64,000 nucleotides of DNA from a virus: the IMG/VR virus record IMGVR_UViG_3300047157_000068, positions 32,001-96,000 of that record. The stretch is one strand, 5' to 3'. The notes under the pieces are model-generated. The model did no database searches, had not been told where the DNA came from, and saw only the letters and a program-made list of their open reading frames with translations. Positions within the stretch are counted from its first letter, which is position 1, and each line of letters opens with the position of its first letter. A program made the position numbers and the translations under genes. Shown here one piece after another: positions 26,208 to 41,132 of the stretch.

Positions 26208-26410
26208 TTCTTGGATTTGTATCCACCTCCGTTAGCTTTGTAACGTTTAGCAAGCATTTGAGCTTTACGTGCAGACCATTGACCCGGTGCACCACCTTTA
26301 CTACCAGCCTTGATAGAATTAAATAATCTTTTACGCATTCCCGGTTTAGTGTAGTTACCACTACTATTTACGGTACTTTTCTTTTTAGTTGTTTTTCTTT
26401 TTAATGCCAT
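26204..26410 (-). CDS. Basic protein, resembling the N-terminal half of DUF5872
   Basis: YTKPGMRKRLF..IKAGSKGG.PGQWSARKAQMLA..YK..GGGY motif. Confidence 0.6.
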   Translation of the reverse strand: MALKRKTTKKKSTVNSSGNYTKPGMRKRLFNSIKAGSKGGAPGQWSARKAQMLAKRYKANGGGYKSKK

Positions 26411-26414
26411 AACT

Positions 26415-26738
26415 TTATGCTTTGTATGTTTCTGGATACGCCTTAAACATTATATCTCTTAATTTTGCACACTTTTCATAGTCTTCTTCTTCTACGAAGT
26501 ACGCTATTATATTTTCTAATTCTTCAAGTTTTGGTCCGTTATCTGGATCATAAGCCATCACTAATTCTTTTCCTTCACTGAATTGACTTGATATAAGTTC
26601 GTCAAAAGTTATTTCTCCGGCCAGCAACATCCAAGCATTATTGTATGCAGTATCTAATATAATAGCATCCATTTGCATTTGTTGTATATCTGACAGTCCA
26701 CCCCCTTCTGTCTTATCATTATCATCCCAGTCTGCCAT
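26415..26738 (-). CDS. Acidic protein with C-terminal UVR (UvrB/UvrC) motif
   Basis: EEEDYEKCAKLRD motif; first gene of the leftward block. Confidence 0.6.
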   Translation of the reverse strand: MADWDDNDKTEGGGLSDIQQMQMDAIILDTAYNNAWMLLAGEITFDELISSQFSEGKELVMAYDPDNGPKLEELENIIAYFVEEEDYEKCAKLRDIMFKAYPETYKA

Positions 26739-26774
26739 ATCATTTTATTTAGTGAGTAACTCTTCTATAAGAAC

Positions 26775-26782
26775 AATATACT
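26775..26782 (-). promoter_or_regulatory. Putative late promoter element (GTATATT)
   Basis: The same element lies upstream of minus-strand genes at 5309, 9160, 10572, 36425 and 63934. Confidence 0.55.
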
Positions 26783-26899
26783 AAATTTAAAAATCCTATG
26801 AAAATTTTTCTAGCACAACATGCCCCCGCCTACTGTAAAATTGTCCCTACGCCCCACCAAAAAATTGTGTGTTTGGCACTTTCAAGAGGTATTACTGTA

Positions 26900-27777
26900 C
26901 TGCTCCCCAACTAAGTTTTGCACCGGTGGTACCCCCTATCAACATTGGCTACTGCTGTGCAACTTGTGTAGAGATACAAAACAAGTGTACTAAAAAATAA
27001 AATGTACACATCTGTATCTCTCACAACGGAGTAGTGTAGTGCTACTGTGTCAACGTAAGTATCTACTGAATATCAGTACATCATTGATTTGTTTGTATTC
27101 ATCAGTAACTATAGTACGTACACACACTCACTACATAAAGGCATTTTCCAATGCCTCTGCTCCCAAACTATATAACGCATAGGTAATTATGCTTAATAAA
27201 CTTTCAGTAAATGTATTACCACATTTATAATCAAAAATTAAATATTAAACATTATGAATTTAGTAACAGTAAGAAAATCAGAAGACGGATTAACAGTAAG
27301 AACATCTAAAAACCCATTATACGGCTTTGTAGTAATGGAACAAAAAGGTGCATTTGCTGTATCAGCAACAGGCTGGGTGGATATAAAGACACCAACGTGT
27401 CTAATCCAAGGTACTATGGAAAACCTTAAAGCAATGGAAGAAACATTGAATAAAGGTTTAGTAGGTAAGATTGTGCATAAGGAAAGCTTAGAGCCTTTCA
27501 ATCTAAAAAATCCTATGAATGATATTAAGTATGCAGGTAAAACAAAGATAGCTTGCTCTGTAAAAGGAAAGCCTATCTATAGAGTATCTACATTTAGTGC
27601 TGATATTAATGCTGTAGATGAATTGATTGCTCATGATAATGGTAAACAAATATCTGAAGCTAACTTAAAAGGTCAGGCTGTAGAGAGTTTAAGTGCTCTT
27701 AAAGCAGAACCTGTAACTGCGTAACTGTAACATTAGGCTGTAGGCGTGCATTTCCATGCACGTCTGCTCCCTAACTA
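26900..27777 (+). repeat. Three copies of CTGCTCCCNAACTA, two of them directly preceded by a TTCC-loop hairpin
   Basis: Copies at 26900-26913, 27157-27170 and 27764-27777; hairpins at 27139-27156 and 27745-27762. Confidence 0.75.
27254..27724 (+). CDS. First early gene; paralog of the 31702 protein (putative ssDNA-binding), lacking the acidic tail
   Basis: Shares SKN.P.YGF, GW, GKIV..ESLEPFN, KYAG.T.I.C...G.PIYR and H.NG..I..AN with 31702..32299. Confidence 0.7.
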   Translation: MNLVTVRKSEDGLTVRTSKNPLYGFVVMEQKGAFAVSATGWVDIKTPTCLIQGTMENLKAMEETLNKGLVGKIVHKESLEPFNLKNPMNDIKYAGKTKIACSVKGKPIYRVSTFSADINAVDELIAHDNGKQISEANLKGQAVESLSALKAEPVTA

Positions 27778-28105
27778 CAGCATGTTAGAACAAAATAGTT
27801 AACATTAACTAACAAAACTAAAAATGTTAGACTATAGTTACAAAACAGTTAGATAAACTTATTTATTGTGGTAATTTTATTTTATTTGTGTGTGTCACTC
27901 TGAATGTGAGGTCTTATACCCACTAAATACCACCTTTTACCACTCTTGTAACTATGAGTGTTACTAATAATATAAATATAGCTAACGTTACTACAAGCGT
28001 AACAATTACACTCAACAATACAACAAGGGTAGTCTTTGTCTCTTCCTCTATAGGATAAGAGCCATATTACCCGCAATATCAATAATCCTTAAATACTAAA
28101 TCATT

Positions 28106-28441
28106 ATGCAAATCAAATCAAAAACTAAATTACCAGAAACTGTAATAACTATCAGGTTAACCTCAGCAAAAGAAATGTATGACTTCAGTGAACTTACACA
28201 TAGCCATACAGAGTATGATACTGATTGGGATGAACTACTGTATACATTGAGTGAGTACAAAGGTATTGATTCACATATATATCTTCAGTATCCATCAGAT
28301 ATGCAACTCAAGAATGGGGATGTAGTTTGCACTATAACTTTGTATTGTAAAGATTATGAGAAACTAGATTATCTTGAGGCAGAGATAACCAAAAGAATAT
28401 CAACTGTATTAACAGTTACTTGGCCTTGGGAAAGGGATAAC
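28106..28441 (+). CDS. Early hypothetical protein (track end 28444)
   Basis: 112-aa ORF with an ACTAAATC leader. Confidence 0.55.
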
Positions 28442-28468
28442 TAAATCATTCACTAAAACTAAATCGTA

Positions 28469-28645
28469 ATGGAAATAGCAAACATAGAAAGAAACTACAA
28501 CAAGCATGAAGATAAATATGAAATCGTTATGTGGGTAAAAGATACCGTAAATCATTCTAGAACACCAATAGTAGTAAAAGATACTACAAACAATAGCCTT
28601 AACTATGCTTATGCAAGTAAGCTATTTAAATCTTGGAATAAATAA
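28469..28645 (+). CDS. Small early protein (58 aa)
   Basis: MEIANIERNYNK...KSWNK*, with an ACTAAATC leader. Confidence 0.55.
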   Translation: MEIANIERNYNKHEDKYEIVMWVKDTVNHSRTPIVVKDTTNNSLNYAYASKLFKSWNK

Positions 28646-28815
28646 TGTTCTTTGAAGATGCACAAGATGCTTGGGATTTATATAGTATAAGTCCTGAGCT
28701 AACATGTACCTGTGATGAAGTACATACATGTCAACAATGCTATGAAGAATGGCAAGAAGAAAAGAAACTTAGACTTCAAAGACTTGAAGATGCTCTGAAA
28801 GAGAGTAAAGAATAA
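28645..28815 (+). CDS. Small Cys-containing early protein (56 aa)
   Basis: TAATG coupling to the previous ORF; CTC....CQQC motif. Confidence 0.5.
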   Translation: MFFEDAQDAWDLYSISPELTCTCDEVHTCQQCYEEWQEEKKLRLQRLEDALKESKE

Positions 28816-29216
28816 TAACTAATAATCCTACCGTATGGATGGAGGTAAATAACGGAGTGAATATCTCTATTAGTTATATCTTTTTAACCCGTGGCAACGG
28901 GAGTGCTGGGTGTCACTTTGTACACCAAGAGGAATAGTTTGTCAGCTTAACCTCGTATACGTTAGGGCCAATGTGCCTGTAAGGTTTGACAACCTGAAAC
29001 CGTGTATTTGACTTGTCTGTTGAATATGTAACAGTCATCGTCAACCGGGTAAACGGTCGTTAAGAGGTAATCAGGCTCTTTATTTTTAACTACACTGATT
29101 GATGACACTAGAGATCAGTATAAATGTATGTGTCAAAAACTTAGAGCAATGAGTCACGCAATACCACTGACTATTCTGTAATAGTGTCAGCCAATAATGG
29201 ATAAGCACTCTAAGTT
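28816..29216 (+). ncRNA. Cluster of structured non-coding elements (unassigned)
   Basis: About 400 nt without a track ORF, locally GC-richer, with many stems; three units end in T-rich TTTTTAA linkers. Confidence 0.45.
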
Positions 29217-29243
29217 ATTTTTAATCACTAATACTAAATCGTT

Positions 29244-29423
29244 ATGAAAAAGAAATTTTGTTACCTTATGCTACTCCTATTCATAGGAGGACCAATACTT
29301 CAATCATGTGGATCATCTCGTGGTTGTAAGAAAATGAGAAAATACCGTAAGAAAAGAAGTAAAACTTCATATGCATATCAAAATGCATTAATCATTAATC
29401 AATTAAATACTAAACTATCATGA
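29244..29423 (+). CDS. Small lipoprotein with a basic tail (59 aa)
   Basis: MKKKFCYLMLLLFIGGPILQSC lipobox followed by a K/R-rich segment. Confidence 0.6.
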   Translation: MKKKFCYLMLLLFIGGPILQSCGSSRGCKKMRKYRKKRSKTSYAYQNALIINQLNTKLS

Positions 29424-29881
29424 AAAATTTAATCTTATCCTTATTTATTGGGCTATCATTTGCTTCTTGTCAGAAAGAAGAACTTGAAATAGTTCAACCA
29501 ATGCCACCAAGTAATACATCGTATGAAATATATGCTATGTCAAGTACTGGTGCAGGTGCATCTTTACTATGGACATACTTTATGTATGAGTCTATTGATA
29601 GTAATGGAGTAACCGCAGCTGATAAACTCGTAGCTAACTATAATGCTTGGCAACTTGTTTGTACTGAATGTGACAATGAGGATGAGTATTATATTTATTC
29701 TATGGACACAAGTCTAGTTAGTAATCCTGACGCAGTTGTAATAAGCTCGTTTAATTACGTAGACTTTGCAACAGTATATTTTAATAATGCTAACTCGCCT
29801 GTTGGTGATGGTAGATTTTATCTCTATCCTCATGACATGTTAGATAGCTACAACAATCTAGATCAAGTAACCTTATATTAA
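29420..29881 (+). CDS. Lipoprotein with a Bacteroidota lipoprotein export signal
   Basis: MKNLILSLFIGLSFAS-C-QKEE signal peptide II plus an LES-like motif. Confidence 0.75.
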   Translation: MKNLILSLFIGLSFASCQKEELEIVQPMPPSNTSYEIYAMSSTGAGASLLWTYFMYESIDSNGVTAADKLVANYNAWQLVCTECDNEDEYYIYSMDTSLVSNPDAVVISSFNYVDFATVYFNNANSPVGDGRFYLYPHDMLDSYNNLDQVTLY

Positions 29882-29900
29882 TCAAATCAATAAAACTATC

Positions 29901-30215
29901 ATGAAACAAATTTCAAAGTATCTAATCAAATTACTTTATGTAATTATCATTCCACTAGCTGTAACCTATGTATTCATAGAAATATTAGCTAGTGATGGCA
30001 CAGTATCAACAGAGAGCTTAGCTCTTATCATGGCATTTTGGGTTATAACATTCTTTAATGCAGTTTTCTGGCTTATAAACATGAAAACAACTCATCTTTT
30101 ACCTAAAATGAAATGTCAGTGGAGAACTGGCTTTGGTATTTATATGAGAAAGGTCAACTTCCACTGGGAGTTAGATTTACCACTATTCACTATAATCTTC
30201 CAAAGAAGAAAATAA
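29901..30215 (+). CDS. Membrane protein (two TM segments)
   Basis: Two hydrophobic segments. Confidence 0.6.
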   Translation: MKQISKYLIKLLYVIIIPLAVTYVFIEILASDGTVSTESLALIMAFWVITFFNAVFWLINMKTTHLLPKMKCQWRTGFGIYMRKVNFHWELDLPLFTIIFQRRK

Positions 30216-30306
30216 AAGGCTCACATATGAACCACTAACAACACCAGTAATTATATCTATATATTAATACTAGTGTTGTTGGCTGTGTTCGCAATCAATA
30301 ATTATT

Positions 30307-30860
30307 ATGCAAAAACAATATAACGTTCAGCAAGAGATACTTAAAGGTATCTTACATAAATTATTTGACGGTAAAGCTGTCAATCAAGTAAAGAATCTAA
30401 GTTTAATAACAGATATTATCTTTAGAGACCTTAAAGAGTCAGCTCTAGAAGCTATTACTCATCTTATGTTAACTGAAAAAACATTTATACCAACAAAATT
30501 GGTGATTATGTCAAAGTAATACCACCTAAGTACCATGAAGGTAGTGAATTTGAGGTAGATGTACTTGAAGACATGGGTTTATTGGGTAAAGGAGATGAAT
30601 ACAGTCCATACTATGTCTATGGTCGTGTTAAAGGAGATACATCATGGGGATCTGATCCTTATGATCCATTTCATAGTACAATAAAAGTTGATCTTATGTA
30701 TCATGATGAAAATAAAGTAATTAAACATGTAGAAGGAACATTTAGTCCTTTACATGCTCTTCATGTACAGAAAAGATTTATACCTTTTTTAAAAGACATT
30801 AATCAAACAGAATTAAAATTTCAAGAAAATGGCACAGATATCAATGGAGTTACTGCATAG
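30307..30860 (+). CDS. Hypothetical protein (frameshifted)
   Basis: ORFs 30307..30519 and 30573..30860 appear to join across an indel near 30495. Confidence 0.5.
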
Positions 30861-31041
30861 TGAGCAAGCATCATGGAGGTTATTAGATAACGCACTCAAA
30901 GATGCTGATGGCAAAAATATATCTTTTGGAAGGTATATGAATGATAAGTATAGTATGAATGATGATGAACTAGCTAAAGAAGAGAGTGAATCAATGGCCA
31001 TGCTTATACTTTTAAAAAGTCATGTCAAAGAAATCAGATAG
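30829..31041 (+). CDS. Hypothetical protein
   Basis: 70-aa ORF overlapping its neighbours. Confidence 0.5.
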   Translation: MAQISMELLHSEQASWRLLDNALKDADGKNISFGRYMNDKYSMNDDELAKEESESMAMLILLKSHVKEIR

Positions 31042-31273
31042 ATTTGGTATAGTTAAGCATGTTGTCTGTACAGATCCTAACTTGTCTATTCAAGCTAAGG
31101 GTCTGTATAGTATTTTATGCTGTTATGCCAATAAAAACAGAATTTGTTGGCCATCAATTAGTACACTTGCAGATGACTCTGGCTCAAGTCAATCATCTGT
31201 TAAAAGATGGATAAAAGAGCTAAAAACACATAAATACATAAAAAGAATAGGTAATAAGTTAACCATATTATGA
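31022..31273 (+). CDS. Stand-alone winged helix-turn-helix protein (HTH_36-like)
   Basis: LSIQAKGLYSIL..YA.....CWPSISTLA...G.S.SSVKRWIKEL....YI pattern. Confidence 0.75.
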   Translation: MSKKSDRFGIVKHVVCTDPNLSIQAKGLYSILCCYANKNRICWPSISTLADDSGSSQSSVKRWIKELKTHKYIKRIGNKLTIL

Positions 31274-31356
31274 TGCGTTAGCTATATTTATGCTTTTTAT
31301 TTTTGAATTAAGTCCAAATTCATTTTATATTTCTGACACAGGTTAAGTTATATTAT

Positions 31357-31364
31357 TATCTTTG
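31357..31364 (+). promoter_or_regulatory. Bacteroidota-type -7 promoter box (TAnnTTTG)
   Basis: TATCTTTG upstream of 31384. The same box occurs at 37167, 41188, 48988 and 63984 (+) and at 25153 and 36423 (-), near gene starts where these are visible. Confidence 0.65.
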
Positions 31365-31383
31365 ATAAACATTAAATAAGATA

Positions 31384-31656
31384 ATGATAATACAACTTCC
31401 TAATGGCAGAATCATAGAATGTTCTTTAGAACAGTACCTCTCACTCTCAGATGAGGAGTACAATGATCTTAATGGCCTTAGTTCAGCATACACAAAGGAA
31501 GTGGTTGATCCATGGTATAATAAGTTTGCAAAAGCAACTGGTAAAGCTGTCTCAGATGAAGCAATAGAGAATATTGAAGAGTATGAGCCTGCACTAGATG
31601 AGATTGAAGCTTATGAAAAACTGGAAGACCCGTATTTTCACTCTGATGATAGTTGA
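31384..31656 (+). CDS. Acidic hypothetical protein
   Basis: 90-aa ORF directly after the promoter box. Confidence 0.6.
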   Translation: MIIQLPNGRIIECSLEQYLSLSDEEYNDLNGLSSAYTKEVVDPWYNKFAKATGKAVSDEAIENIEEYEPALDEIEAYEKLEDPYFHSDDS

Positions 31657-31701
31657 TCATCACACACAATTATTTTATTAATCATTTAAATTTTATTAAA
31701 A

Positions 31702-32299
31702 ATGCAAAATCAAGTAGAAGTCCTAGCGGATGACATGGGTAATGTTGTACGCTTAAGCAAAAACAATCCAGAGTATGGATTTATTAGATTAGGTCAAACA
31801 AGATCTATAATTACTAAAGATGGTTGGTTAGCGCCAAAGAATCTTACAACTTTAGTATTAGGTAAAGCAGAAGATTTAACAACTTATGCTAAAACTTTAG
31901 GTAAAACATTACCTGGTAAAATTGTAGTAATAGAATCATTAGAGCCTTTTAACTCTAAAGATCCAGACAGAGATTATAAATATGCAGGTCAAACTGGTAT
32001 TATATGCTGTCAAGACGGACAACCTATTTATAGGAAAACACAATACACTCTTGATCTAAATAAAGAGGATGTATTGGTAGAGCACACTAATGGTGATGCT
32101 ATCCGTGCTGCAAATGAAACTGCTTTTAACTTAGACAAAAAAACCTAAGAAAGCAACAACTGCAGAAGCATTTGGTTTGAAAACAGATGATGGTACACCA
32201 CCATTAGATGAAGTTGAAGACATGGATGTTGTTGAAGAAGAGGTAGTTGCTGAAACAGAAGAAGAACTAGTTGAAGAGGAAGAAACTTTTGAACTATAA
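31702..32299 (+). CDS. Putative ssDNA-binding protein with acidic tail (frameshift in poly-A near 32140)
   Basis: The shifted frame continues ...PLDEVEDMDVVEEEVVAETEEELVEEEETFEL*, then a terminator hairpin. Confidence 0.55.
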
Positions 32300-33419: not shown

Positions 33420-33512
33420 CCTTTAACACCAAAGAGAAATGAAACAATATCAAAAAGACAGGCTAATTAGAATATTAGCTTGGACAATCGTACTATCAAT
33501 AACAATAATATT

Positions 33513-34638
33513 ATGGCAAATAATTCTGGGACAGCTGTTCCAACTAGAAACGTAGTTCAAGAAGATGCACTAGCAATAGCAGTGCAACATAAAAGGTGTG
33601 GCTTAGCCATATCTATGGGTGTAGGTAAAACTAGAATAGCAATACAGCACCTTCAAAGATACTATGATCAGTTCATACAAGTACTGGTAGTAGTTCCAAA
33701 ACATTCAGTAGCTCAATCATGGATTGATGAGTTAGGTAAAATGGGATTAGAATCTTTAGTTAAGCATATCACATTTACTACATACATCTCATTAAAAAAG
33801 AGAGAACCACAATAACTATGATATAGTATATTTAGATGAGTGTCATTCACTTAAATATGTTCATGAGTTATTTCTAGCTAGATTTACAGGTAGAATTCTT
33901 GGTCTTACTGGTACACCACCAAAAAACACAACCTCTGAAAAGGGAATGTTAGTACAAAAGTATTGTCCTATTAAATATACATTTACTACGGATGATGCAA
34001 CTGACTCTAAGATACTTAATGACTATAAGATCATTATACATCAGTTAGAATTGTCTAAGTTACCTTCTTTAAAGAAGAAAAACAAGGCAGGTGGATTCTG
34101 GTACACATCAGAGAAAAAAGATTATGATTATGTTACCAATAGACTAGCACAGGCTAATACTGACAAACAAATACAGTTTGGTAGAATTATGCGTATGAGA
34201 GCTCTAATGGATTACACTAGTAAAGAAGCATATGTAAAAGGTATACTTGGTAATGTAAGCAGTAAATGTATTGTATTTGCTAATACCCAAAAACAAGCAG
34301 ATAGAATGTGCAAGCATAGTTATCATTCTAAAAATCCTAAATCAGATGAGAACCTTGAGTTATTTTCTGATGGAAGGATAGATAAGCTATCCTGTGTGTT
34401 ACAGTTATCAGAAGGTGTTACAATACCAGGCCTCAAAGCAGGTATTATTATGCATGCATATGGTAATGAAAGAAAGACAGCACAAAGAATAGGAAGATTA
34501 CTCAGGTTAAATCCAACTGAGACAGCTACATGTCACATACTTATGTACACAGGTACACAAGATGAGAAATGGGTGGCTGATGCAGTTAAAGGATTTGATC
34601 AATCAAAAATTAAATATTATAATCCACTTAAAAAATAA
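33513..34638 (+). CDS. Superfamily II helicase (frameshift near 33812)
   Basis: GVGKT Walker A, YLDECH, GLTGT, LSEGV and QRIGRLLR motifs. Confidence 0.85.
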
Positions 34639-39748: not shown

Positions 39749-40432
39749 ATGGCAAACAGCGTATTAGTAATTGCTGATTCAGGTACAGGAAAGTCTACCT
39801 CAATCAGAACATTAGATCCCAAAGAGACTTTCATTATAAACATAGCAAATAAACCTCTACCTTTTAAGGGTTGGAAGAGTAAGTATACTCAGATAACTAA
39901 AGATAATCCTAAAGGTAATCTTACCTCAGCTGCTACAGCTCCTGGTATTATTAAGGCAATGCGTCATGTAAATGATAAAATGGGCCATATCAAAACTATT
40001 GTTGTTGATGATTGGCAATATATGAGTTCTTTTGAATATTTTGATAGAGCTAATGAAAAAGGATATGAAAAGTTTACTCAGATTGCAGCTAACCTAGCAC
40101 AAGTTGCTAAGTTACCTAAAGATCTAAGAGATGACTTGACTATTATTTTTCTAACTCACTCAGAAGATTCAACTGATATAAATGGGAATAGAAAGATCAA
40201 AGCTAAGACTGTTGGTAAAATGATTGACAACACACTAACTTTGGAAGGCTTATTCTCAATTGTTTTATTTGGAAAAGTAAATAAAAATGATGATGGTGAA
40301 CTTGAATATGGTTTTGAAACTCAAAACAATGGAGAGAACACATGTAAATCACCAATGGGTATGTTTGAAGATAAATTTATCAAAAATGACCTACAATTTG
40401 TAACCAGTTGTATTGAAGAATACAACAAATAA
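39749..40432 (+). CDS. AAA_24 / Sak4-like ATPase
   Basis: ADSGTGKSTSIR, IINIANKPLPF, VVDDWQY and KSPMGMF motifs. Confidence 0.85.
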   Translation: MANSVLVIADSGTGKSTSIRTLDPKETFIINIANKPLPFKGWKSKYTQITKDNPKGNLTSAATAPGIIKAMRHVNDKMGHIKTIVVDDWQYMSSFEYFDRANEKGYEKFTQIAANLAQVAKLPKDLRDDLTIIFLTHSEDSTDINGNRKIKAKTVGKMIDNTLTLEGLFSIVLFGKVNKNDDGELEYGFETQNNGENTCKSPMGMFEDKFIKNDLQFVTSCIEEYNK

Positions 40433-40457: not shown

Positions 40458-41132
40458 ATGTTAAGTACTAAAGACATGTCTGCCGGATCAGGTGGAACTA
40501 AACCAGTAATTGGAACAGGTAATCAAAAAGTAATGATCAATTCAATAACATTTGATCAAACACCATATGATGTAAATGCATATAATATTACATTACATGT
40601 AGAAAGTGAGCCTATTGAAGGAGAGTTTAATGGCTTTCTTAAAGATGTAAATAATCCTAATGGTGAGCGTTATGCAGGCCAAGTAGGTAGAGTAAGATTT
40701 TCTCCATATCCATTTAAAGATGCTACATTGGCAAATGGTAATGAGATTAACCGTGATACTGAAGTATTGAAAGCAATGGTTTTCTTATCTGAAGTTGTTG
40801 GTAAGAGAGATGAGCTTGATGCTATTGAGGCAGGAACAATTGAAGACTTTATGATTAAAGCTGCAAAGATTTGTTCTGGTACAGGTTACATCAACGCTTG
40901 CTTAGGTGCACGTGAGTGGGAAAATAGAGAAGGTTATGTTAACAATGATCTATTCTTACCAAAGAGAAACAGAATGGGTGTTCCTTTAGAAGCACTAGAA
41001 ACAGAGAACTCTAATCTTGTACAATTTGATAAGAATGATACCAATCATTTCAGACCATTTGTAAAGAAAGATGCAGCTCCTGCTAATAACTTTGAACCAG
41101 CTCCTACTGCAGGATCTGATTTTGAACTTTAA
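40458..41132 (+). CDS. Putative ssDNA-binding protein
   Basis: Follows the Sak4-like ATPase; flexible tail ending SDFEL; terminator downstream. Confidence 0.5.
   Translation: MLSTKDMSAGSGGTKPVIGTGNQKVMINSITFDQTPYDVNAYNITLHVESEPIEGEFNGFLKDVNNPNGERYAGQVGRVRFSPYPFKDATLANGNEINRDTEVLKAMVFLSEVVGKRDELDAIEAGTIEDFMIKAAKICSGTGYINACLGAREWENREGYVNNDLFLPKRNRMGVPLEALETENSNLVQFDKNDTNHFRPFVKKDAAPANNFEPAPTAGSDFEL

Follow-up and report, generated by a model that had tools for sequence, protein, structure and literature searches.

In phage N4, early transcription relies on a virion RNA polymerase and hairpin promoters, with the host single-stranded DNA-binding protein (SSB) as activator. In phage T7, gp2.5 and gp4 carry acidic C-terminal tails that end in phenylalanine and dock on the polymerase. 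The Sak4 annealase of phage HK620 requires the six C-terminal residues of its cognate SSB, and the usual position of a phage ssb gene is beside sak4 (PMC5928155). In the crAss-like phage phi14:2, long early intergenic regions are highly transcribed, and no common motif was found upstream of early transcripts (bioRxiv 10.1101/2020.03.07.982082). Here we analyze a 64,000-nucleotide stretch of viral DNA (the window; bases 32001-96000 of the 115,836-bp IMG/VR record IMGVR_UViG_3300047157_000068) in which two paralogous genes, an early one and a late one located in the replication module, code for candidate single-stranded DNA (ssDNA)-binding proteins, and hairpin elements flank the early gene.

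Like SSBs of the PF00436 family, the late copy combines a small beta-barrel-like core with a disordered acidic tail and a hydrophobic tip, the early copy corresponds to the tail-less paralogues in that family (B. subtilis SsbB), and the weak structural neighbours are most often SSB and PriB chains. As with T7 gp2.5 and gp4, two unrelated replisome proteins, here the late paralogue and the neighbour of a Sak4-like gene, carry one C-terminal peptide, for which docking is predicted. However, the family shows no sequence or profile similarity to T7 gp2.5 (no PF10991 match), and 1JE5 is not among the listed structural neighbours. The likeness to N4 consists of three close element copies, two of them with short hairpins, that head a gene block, of giant virion-type proteins and of an associated SSB-like protein. 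The differences are that the N4 activator is the host SSB whereas the candidate here is a phage early protein, that the hairpin loop has 4 nt instead of 3 nt, and that no virion RNA polymerase was identified and the promoters are putative. As for HK620 Sak4 and its cognate SSB (PMC5928155), the genome has both a Sak4-like annealase and a tailed SSB-like protein, but 7.5 kb separate the late paralogue from the Sak4-like gene, whose immediate neighbour is a different protein with the same tip. New here are the [DE]F[DE]L tip on the unrelated Sak4 neighbour, with tips that change together, and a fast-evolving early clade that is always hairpin-flanked.

We propose, with what we judge to be an even chance of being right, that the family provides a replicative ssDNA binder with a docking tail, together with an old early paralogue that retained the core and is uncoupled from the replisome. 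In its usual single-copy form, the protein consists of a ~140-aa beta-rich core, the first half of which resembles an oligonucleotide/oligosaccharide-binding (OB) fold, followed by an acidic linker that is disordered and, at the C-terminus, by the tip [DE]-F-[DE]-L. We infer that the tailed form is the replicative ssDNA-binding protein of the phage and that a replisome partner docks on the peptide at its tip. The early copy probably binds the same ligand, because every family-invariant core residue is kept, and it would be uncoupled from the replisome partner, because linker, tail and tip are swapped for a short helix. Its gene stands as a separate unit between two hairpin-CTGCTCCCNAACTA elements heading the rightward block, and its most likely role would be that of an early, non-recruiting coating factor for ssDNA (or hairpin DNA).

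The paralogue pair and its history

The two copies align at 45% identity across 137 aa (BLASTP, E 4e-36), which upholds the paralogy claimed in an initial annotation of the window, and the motifs quoted there are the most conserved columns of the family. That annotation also described the early copy as tail-less. We see directly that it has no acidic tail: its C-terminus reads ...LKAEPVTA, and a short predicted helix replaces the linker, the acidic tail and the tip. The family-invariant residues G71, E77, K92 and I108, as well as the near-invariant ones, are all kept in the early copy. Searches returned 326 homologues for the late copy, nearly all of 185-230 aa, and 243 clusters at 50% identity for the early copy. 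The acidic tail of late-type homologues ends in xF[ED]L in 119 of 120 cases, and many short family members (150-165 aa) still terminate in [DE]F[DNS][IL]. Late-type proteins also conserve a motif in the linker, TAEAFGL; at this motif (32150-32180 of the window, +1 frame) a short helix is predicted (residues 153-156 of P0002), and it may be a second interaction motif.

The two-copy layout was found in three lineages (the window with L006; L023-L025; L046, L051 and L055), and the near-complete relatives G001 and G002, which we used for comparison with the window genome (G000), have a single family copy. With each copy of the motif CTGCTCCCNAACTA called a box, the order read directly in all three lineages is box 1, hairpin with box 2, early gene, hairpin with box 3 and, 3.2-4.2 kb further on, the tailed copy. 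The early copies of the three lineages form one clade (SH-aLRT 91), in which tree path lengths are ~4 times those of the late copies. When the window is compared with L051, protein identity is 44% for the early copy versus 75% for the late one, and the ratio of nonsynonymous to synonymous substitution rates (dN/dS) is 0.36-0.41 for early and 0.22-0.28 for late copies. Judging from the tree, the early gene is an old paralogue that goes back to one duplication predating the split of the three lineages; by these observed rates, it is under faster but still purifying evolution.

The early copies of the three lineages share a C-terminal AVESLxAxKxExVxA motif, a short predicted helix. In lineage B, the early copies (L024 8001-8483; P0122, P0123) extend to ...EASPF, and the window copy stops just before this extension. 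The ...EASPF end resembles the (I/L)PF ends of bacterial SSB tails.

Rapid evolution and the lost tail would also be expected if the early copy were a decaying duplicate without a function of its own. However, despite divergence down to 44% identity, the open reading frame (ORF) is uninterrupted in all three lineages and its length is constant, dN/dS stays at 0.36-0.41, all family-invariant residues are retained, and the protein has its own conserved C-terminal helix motif. Decay is close to refuted by these observations, and we regard it as highly improbable.

The same rates bear on a role in counter-defence or host takeover, in which a first-made, tail-less SSB look-alike would shield phage ssDNA from the enzymes that host SSB recruits, or would serve as a decoy target for defences triggered by phage SSB or ssDNA. 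The early copy is the fastest-evolving one in its neighbourhood (paths ~4 times those of the late copy, dN/dS raised yet below 1), its gene is the first in the rightward block, it has lost the predicted replisome-docking tip, and in lineage B it ends in ...EASPF. Fast evolution can nevertheless be explained otherwise, for example by relaxed constraint after duplication, and we consider such a role unlikely.

Table 1. Coordinates of the paralogue pair, the hairpin elements and related features in the window
Feature	Position	Strand	Remarks
Motif copy 1, CTGCTCCCCAACTA, no hairpin, then conserved ..GGTACCCCC block	26900..26913	+	Type also present in single-copy relatives
Hairpin 2 (7-bp stem AGGCATT/AATGCCT, loop TTCC), directly followed by CTGCTCCCAAACTA	27139..27170	+	DNA fold -6.1 kcal/mol, z -2.2; hairpin 27139-27156, motif 27157-27170; motif end 83 nt 5' of the early-gene ATG
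Early tail-less paralogue, 156 aa	27254..27724	+	AlphaFold pLDDT 95.3; dN/dS 0.36-0.41
Hairpin 3 (8-bp stem GCGTGCAT/ATGCACGT, loop TTCC, outer stem GCTGTAG/CTACAGC), then CTGCTCCCTAACTA	27744..27777	+	DNA fold -14.9 kcal/mol, z -4.1; hairpin 27744-27763, motif 27764-27777; starts 20 nt past the early-gene stop codon
Replication-initiator / replisome-organiser-like winged-helix protein	31022..31273	+	phrog_428, E 7e-16; upstream neighbour of the late copy
Late (replication-module) paralogue, in-frame core only, 148 aa	31702..32148	+	Frameshift shortens the ORF; relatives 187-231 aa, tailed
Frameshift site GAC AAA AAA ACC TAA	32134..32148	+	One base in excess of L006 GAG AAA AAA CCT AAG
Late-copy linker (conserved TAEAFGL) with acidic tail and ETFEL tip	32135..32299	+	+1 frame
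Sak4-like ssDNA annealing protein	39749..40432	+	phrog_2872, E 9e-63
224-aa Sak4 neighbour, C-terminus ...GSDFEL	40458..41132	+	Adjoins the 3' side of the Sak4-like gene

Hairpin elements around the early gene

The initial annotation placed the early gene between two hairpin elements, and the coordinates confirm it (27139-27170 and 27744-27777). The motif CTGCTCCCNAACTA has three copies in the 115.8-kb genome, all on the + strand and inside 880 nt; hairpins 2 and 3 directly precede two of them, and the hairpin-less copy 1 lies 257 nt upstream of the hairpin-2 box. A reversed-pattern control for CTGCTCCCNAACTA had no match in the genome. Hairpin 2 is kept in L006, L024 and L051, where its loop is TTTC, and in L051 both arms of hairpin 3 are one base pair shorter, with the stem preserved. 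When viral contigs were scanned for a hairpin followed by a box, true hairpins turned up in the three two-copy lineages only, and single-copy relatives have only the hairpin-less box-1 type in the same divergent intergenic region (in L026, 80 nt before the first + strand gene). The expected association of the pair with the hairpin elements thus holds in three lineages, whether searched from the protein side or from the motif side. Because these lineages share one ancestor, the co-occurrence of early gene and hairpins amounts to a single evolutionary event.

The non-coding flanks of the early gene (26739-27253 and 27725-28105) show 93-95%, 81-84% and 73-80% nucleotide identity to three relatives, and the early gene itself falls below its flanks (89%, 67% and 53% to the same relatives). 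For the window versus L051, the values are 53% for the early gene, 73% for the upstream flank and 80% for the downstream flank. An Rfam search of 26300-29500 gave one chance-level match only. In the interval 26500-28300, a scan for sigma-70 promoters showed no excess over shuffled controls, and a scan for intrinsic terminators found none. The conserved hairpin-plus-box elements are putative promoters, and the early transcription of phi14:2 makes them and their conserved flanks worth testing.

By analogy with N4, the early protein might serve an injected virion RNA polymerase by holding the template single-stranded or by keeping the hairpin-CTGCTCCC elements in extruded form, the part that the host SSB plays for the N4 enzyme. 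In each of the three lineages with an early gene or true hairpins, both are present, and the non-coding flanks are better conserved than the gene (73-95% versus 53-89% nucleotide identity). The large terminase subunit (TerL) is distantly crAss-like, giant proteins of 3326, 2171 and 1923 aa are encoded, and gp66, the crAss-like virion RNA polymerase of phi14:2, transcribes ssDNA well and double-stranded DNA poorly (bioRxiv 10.1101/2020.03.07.982082). However, the product of the first transcript cannot be required for that same transcript, motif 1 is retained in single-copy relatives that have no early paralogue, and the co-occurrence goes back to one ancestral event. For the early transcripts of phi14:2, too, no common upstream motif was found (bioRxiv 10.1101/2020.03.07.982082). 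Finally, no RNA polymerase was identified in the genome by PHROG and Pfam searches and a DxDGD-type motif scan of the giant proteins: neither PHROGs nor Pfam matched the 3326- and 1923-aa proteins, and the DxDGD-type motif is absent from the three largest proteins (3326, 2171 and 1923 aa). We consider an N4-like cofactor quite improbable. Similarly doubtful is the broader notion that the early paralogue and the hairpin-CTGCTCCCNAACTA elements make up one early-expression module, in which a replisome-uncoupled ssDNA binder would keep hairpin promoters or template single-stranded for an injected, ssDNA-preferring RNA polymerase.

Fold of the core and a C-terminal tip shared with the Sak4 neighbour

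An OB fold had been expected for the family. The AlphaFold model of the early copy (104-sequence alignment) has a pLDDT of 95.3 and a pTM of 0.82; in the model of the intact late form (P0002), the pLDDT of the core is at least 95, and that of the tail, from about residue 160, is 56-60. The modelled elements follow the order strands b1-b3, helix, b4, long conserved loop, b5 and C-terminal helix, which fits an OB fold plus a C-terminal helix. Foldseek matches to the PDB are weak (best E 0.05), and those to BFVD (E 3e-3, TM 0.45-0.50) are two unnamed viral proteins. SSB, PriB and ribosomal S17 dominate the lists of structural matches, with the alignment limited to residues 1-72, and the most conserved half of the core (GKIV..ESLEPFN..KYAG..C..G.PIYR..D..H.N) has no structural match. 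Neither T7 gp2.5 (1JE5) nor gp32 is among the listed structural neighbours. The nearest ESM Atlas clusters include SSB and DUF3577 at 0.85, which we take as a lead only. The element order agrees with the expectation, but the matches are weak and confined to residues 1-72. Overall, the models are compatible with a very divergent OB fold.

Profile searches gave no family assignment. Pfam and PHROGs returned no family match for either copy or for the tail, and hmmscan of 104 aligned family members against Pfam assigned a domain to none of them and gave no SSB hit at E up to 1. The family profile had 0 matches among all PDB sequences (hmmsearch, E up to 10), blastn and tblastn found no match in 50,697 cultured-phage records, and a search of the ESM Atlas with the early copy found nothing. 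Alignment of the family with g028 and g035 of phi14:2 (hhalign) gave probabilities <1%. At the genome level, PF00436 had no match in G000, G001 and G002, and control genomes were matched; PF10991 (T7 gp2.5 / Enc34-type SSB) and PF08804 (T4 gp32) had no match at E up to 1 in the same three genomes. PF11325 (DUF3127), which we take to be an OB-type SSB family of Bacteroidota, had no match in the window genome. We also considered a beta-beta-alpha-metal nuclease (H-x-N...N motif; PHROG 'HNH endonuclease', E 0.37) and rejected it, as it has no support from fold or profile results. Nor is a basic core a general mark of the early clade: the window copy has an isoelectric point (pI) of 9.1, but the L051 early copy is net acidic (hand count).

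The tip of the late copy is directly observed on a second protein. Endings of the F[DE]L type occur in 2 of the 411 genome ORFs of at least 40 aa, namely the late-paralogue tail and the 224-aa Sak4 neighbour, which is unrelated to the paralogue family (hhalign probability 0.1%). Homologues of the Sak4 neighbour end in DF[DE]L in 115 of 120 cases. In G001, the late-type protein and the Sak4 neighbour both end in FEL. In G002, the paralogue ends in ...NEDFSIGG and the Sak4 neighbour in ...SADFNLD, so that both tips are without the acidic middle residue and have extra residues after the tip. Since two unrelated proteins share the tip and their tips change together, the paired changes suggest one docking site that would read both tails. 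The Sak4 neighbour itself has no Pfam, PHROG, SSB profile or PDB chain match, and hhalign with phi14:2 g035 gave a probability <1%.

This shared tip also opens the possibility that the paralogue family is some other replisome accessory (a helicase loader, or a partner of the polymerase or annealase), that the true SSB is the Sak4 neighbour, and that the early copy regulates the same partner. An OB barrel is weakly supported, and no match covers half of the core; the conserved polar residues E77, K92, C101, R110, D122, H127 and N129 are compatible with a role that does not involve base stacking; and the Sak4 neighbour sits at the usual ssb position with the same tip (PMC5928155). On the other hand, SSBs classically carry a long acidic linker that is disordered and closes with a hydrophobic tip, and the Sak4 neighbour has no such linker. 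SSB and PriB matches recur across three comparison methods, and the Sak4 neighbour is likewise without an SSB profile or PDB match. We find this alternative possible, though rather unlikely.

Several points tell against a replicative ssDNA binder with an uncoupled early paralogue, the reading we prefer. No SSB profile matches the paralogue family, and its core is mildly acidic family-wide (median pI 5.6). As the tip is shared with the unrelated Sak4 neighbour, the tip alone cannot make a protein an SSB; the tail and tip are insufficient to identify the late copy as one. The Sak4 neighbour, at the usual position of a phage ssb gene, may itself be the SSB of the phage. That the first gene is expressed early is assumed solely from where it lies, and the late copy is frameshifted in the window record. 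The presence of a Sak4-like annealase in a genome without a match to PF00436, PF11325, PF10991 or PF08804 lends indirect support to an SSB role. Taken together, we consider the paralogue family plausible as an SSB.

The frameshift concerns the part of the late gene that codes for the tail. The initial annotation read 31702-32299 as a single ORF with an acidic tail ending in TFEL. The tail is indeed encoded (...EEEETFEL), but it lies in the +1 frame from ~32135 and not in the same ORF, as the frame of the core closes at a TAA codon (32146-32148); the frameshift had gone unremarked. The relatives P0001, P0002 and L006 (92-99% identity; P0001 and P0002 97-99%) have a continuous late gene of 197-200 aa, and P0001 and P0002 read ...NLEKKPKK... 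across the site. We rejected programmed frameshifting at the A-run, since the gene of the relatives stays in one frame across this site. A second frameshift relative to relatives, at ~30494, divides a 184-aa ORF of L006 into 30307-30519 and 30573-30860, and a third one, at an A6 run (~33796-33812), divides a superfamily 2 (SF2) helicase into 33480-33815 and 33946-34638. ORFs of 1,300-3,300 codons that hold eleven homopolymer runs of at least 7 remain intact. The sequence is compatible with local assembly errors as well as with real lesions at the three sites. Because all three genes are frameshifted in this record, automatic annotation will miscall the late gene, the 184-aa ORF and the SF2 helicase.

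Genome setting and implications

The record is graded complete by CheckV and has a G+C content of ~33%. TerL is 26-28% identical to that of crAss-like phages (E down to 2e-31), and the major capsid protein is 29% identical to that of Leptolyngbya phage Lbo-JY46 and 24% identical to those of Cellulophaga phi17:2 and phi4:1. Judged by terminase and capsid similarity, the window phage is a distant crAss-like relative. The relatives that carry the paralogue family come from marine metagenomes, Tara among the sources, and the family is found only in uncultured marine phages distantly related to crAss-like phages.

Structural genes on the minus strand end at 26738. Plus-strand genes start at 27254 and lead into a replication module with an initiator-like winged-helix protein, an HNH protein, SF2 and DnaB-like helicases, the Sak4-like annealase, a primase, an exonuclease and a family A polymerase. 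Between the two paralogues, a segment at ~28450-29240 fails to align with the close relative L006 (many large indels), and its flanks are ~90% identical there. Two of the giant ORFs lie outside the window (3326 aa, G000 105604-115584; 1923 aa, 99818-105589) and are candidates for virion cargo or a polymerase.

The tip shared by the late paralogue and the Sak4 neighbour is a testable handle on the wiring of the replisome of this phage. If the family binds ssDNA, annotation libraries lack a new SSB lineage that is widespread in marine phages and has an unusual core. It is an open question how crAss-like virion RNA polymerases locate early genes, and the hairpins that bracket the first gene, which are better conserved than the gene, give concrete oligonucleotides, and a protein, with which to approach it. 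If the early-expression module were true, the wider crAss-like group would have its first defined early-promoter system.

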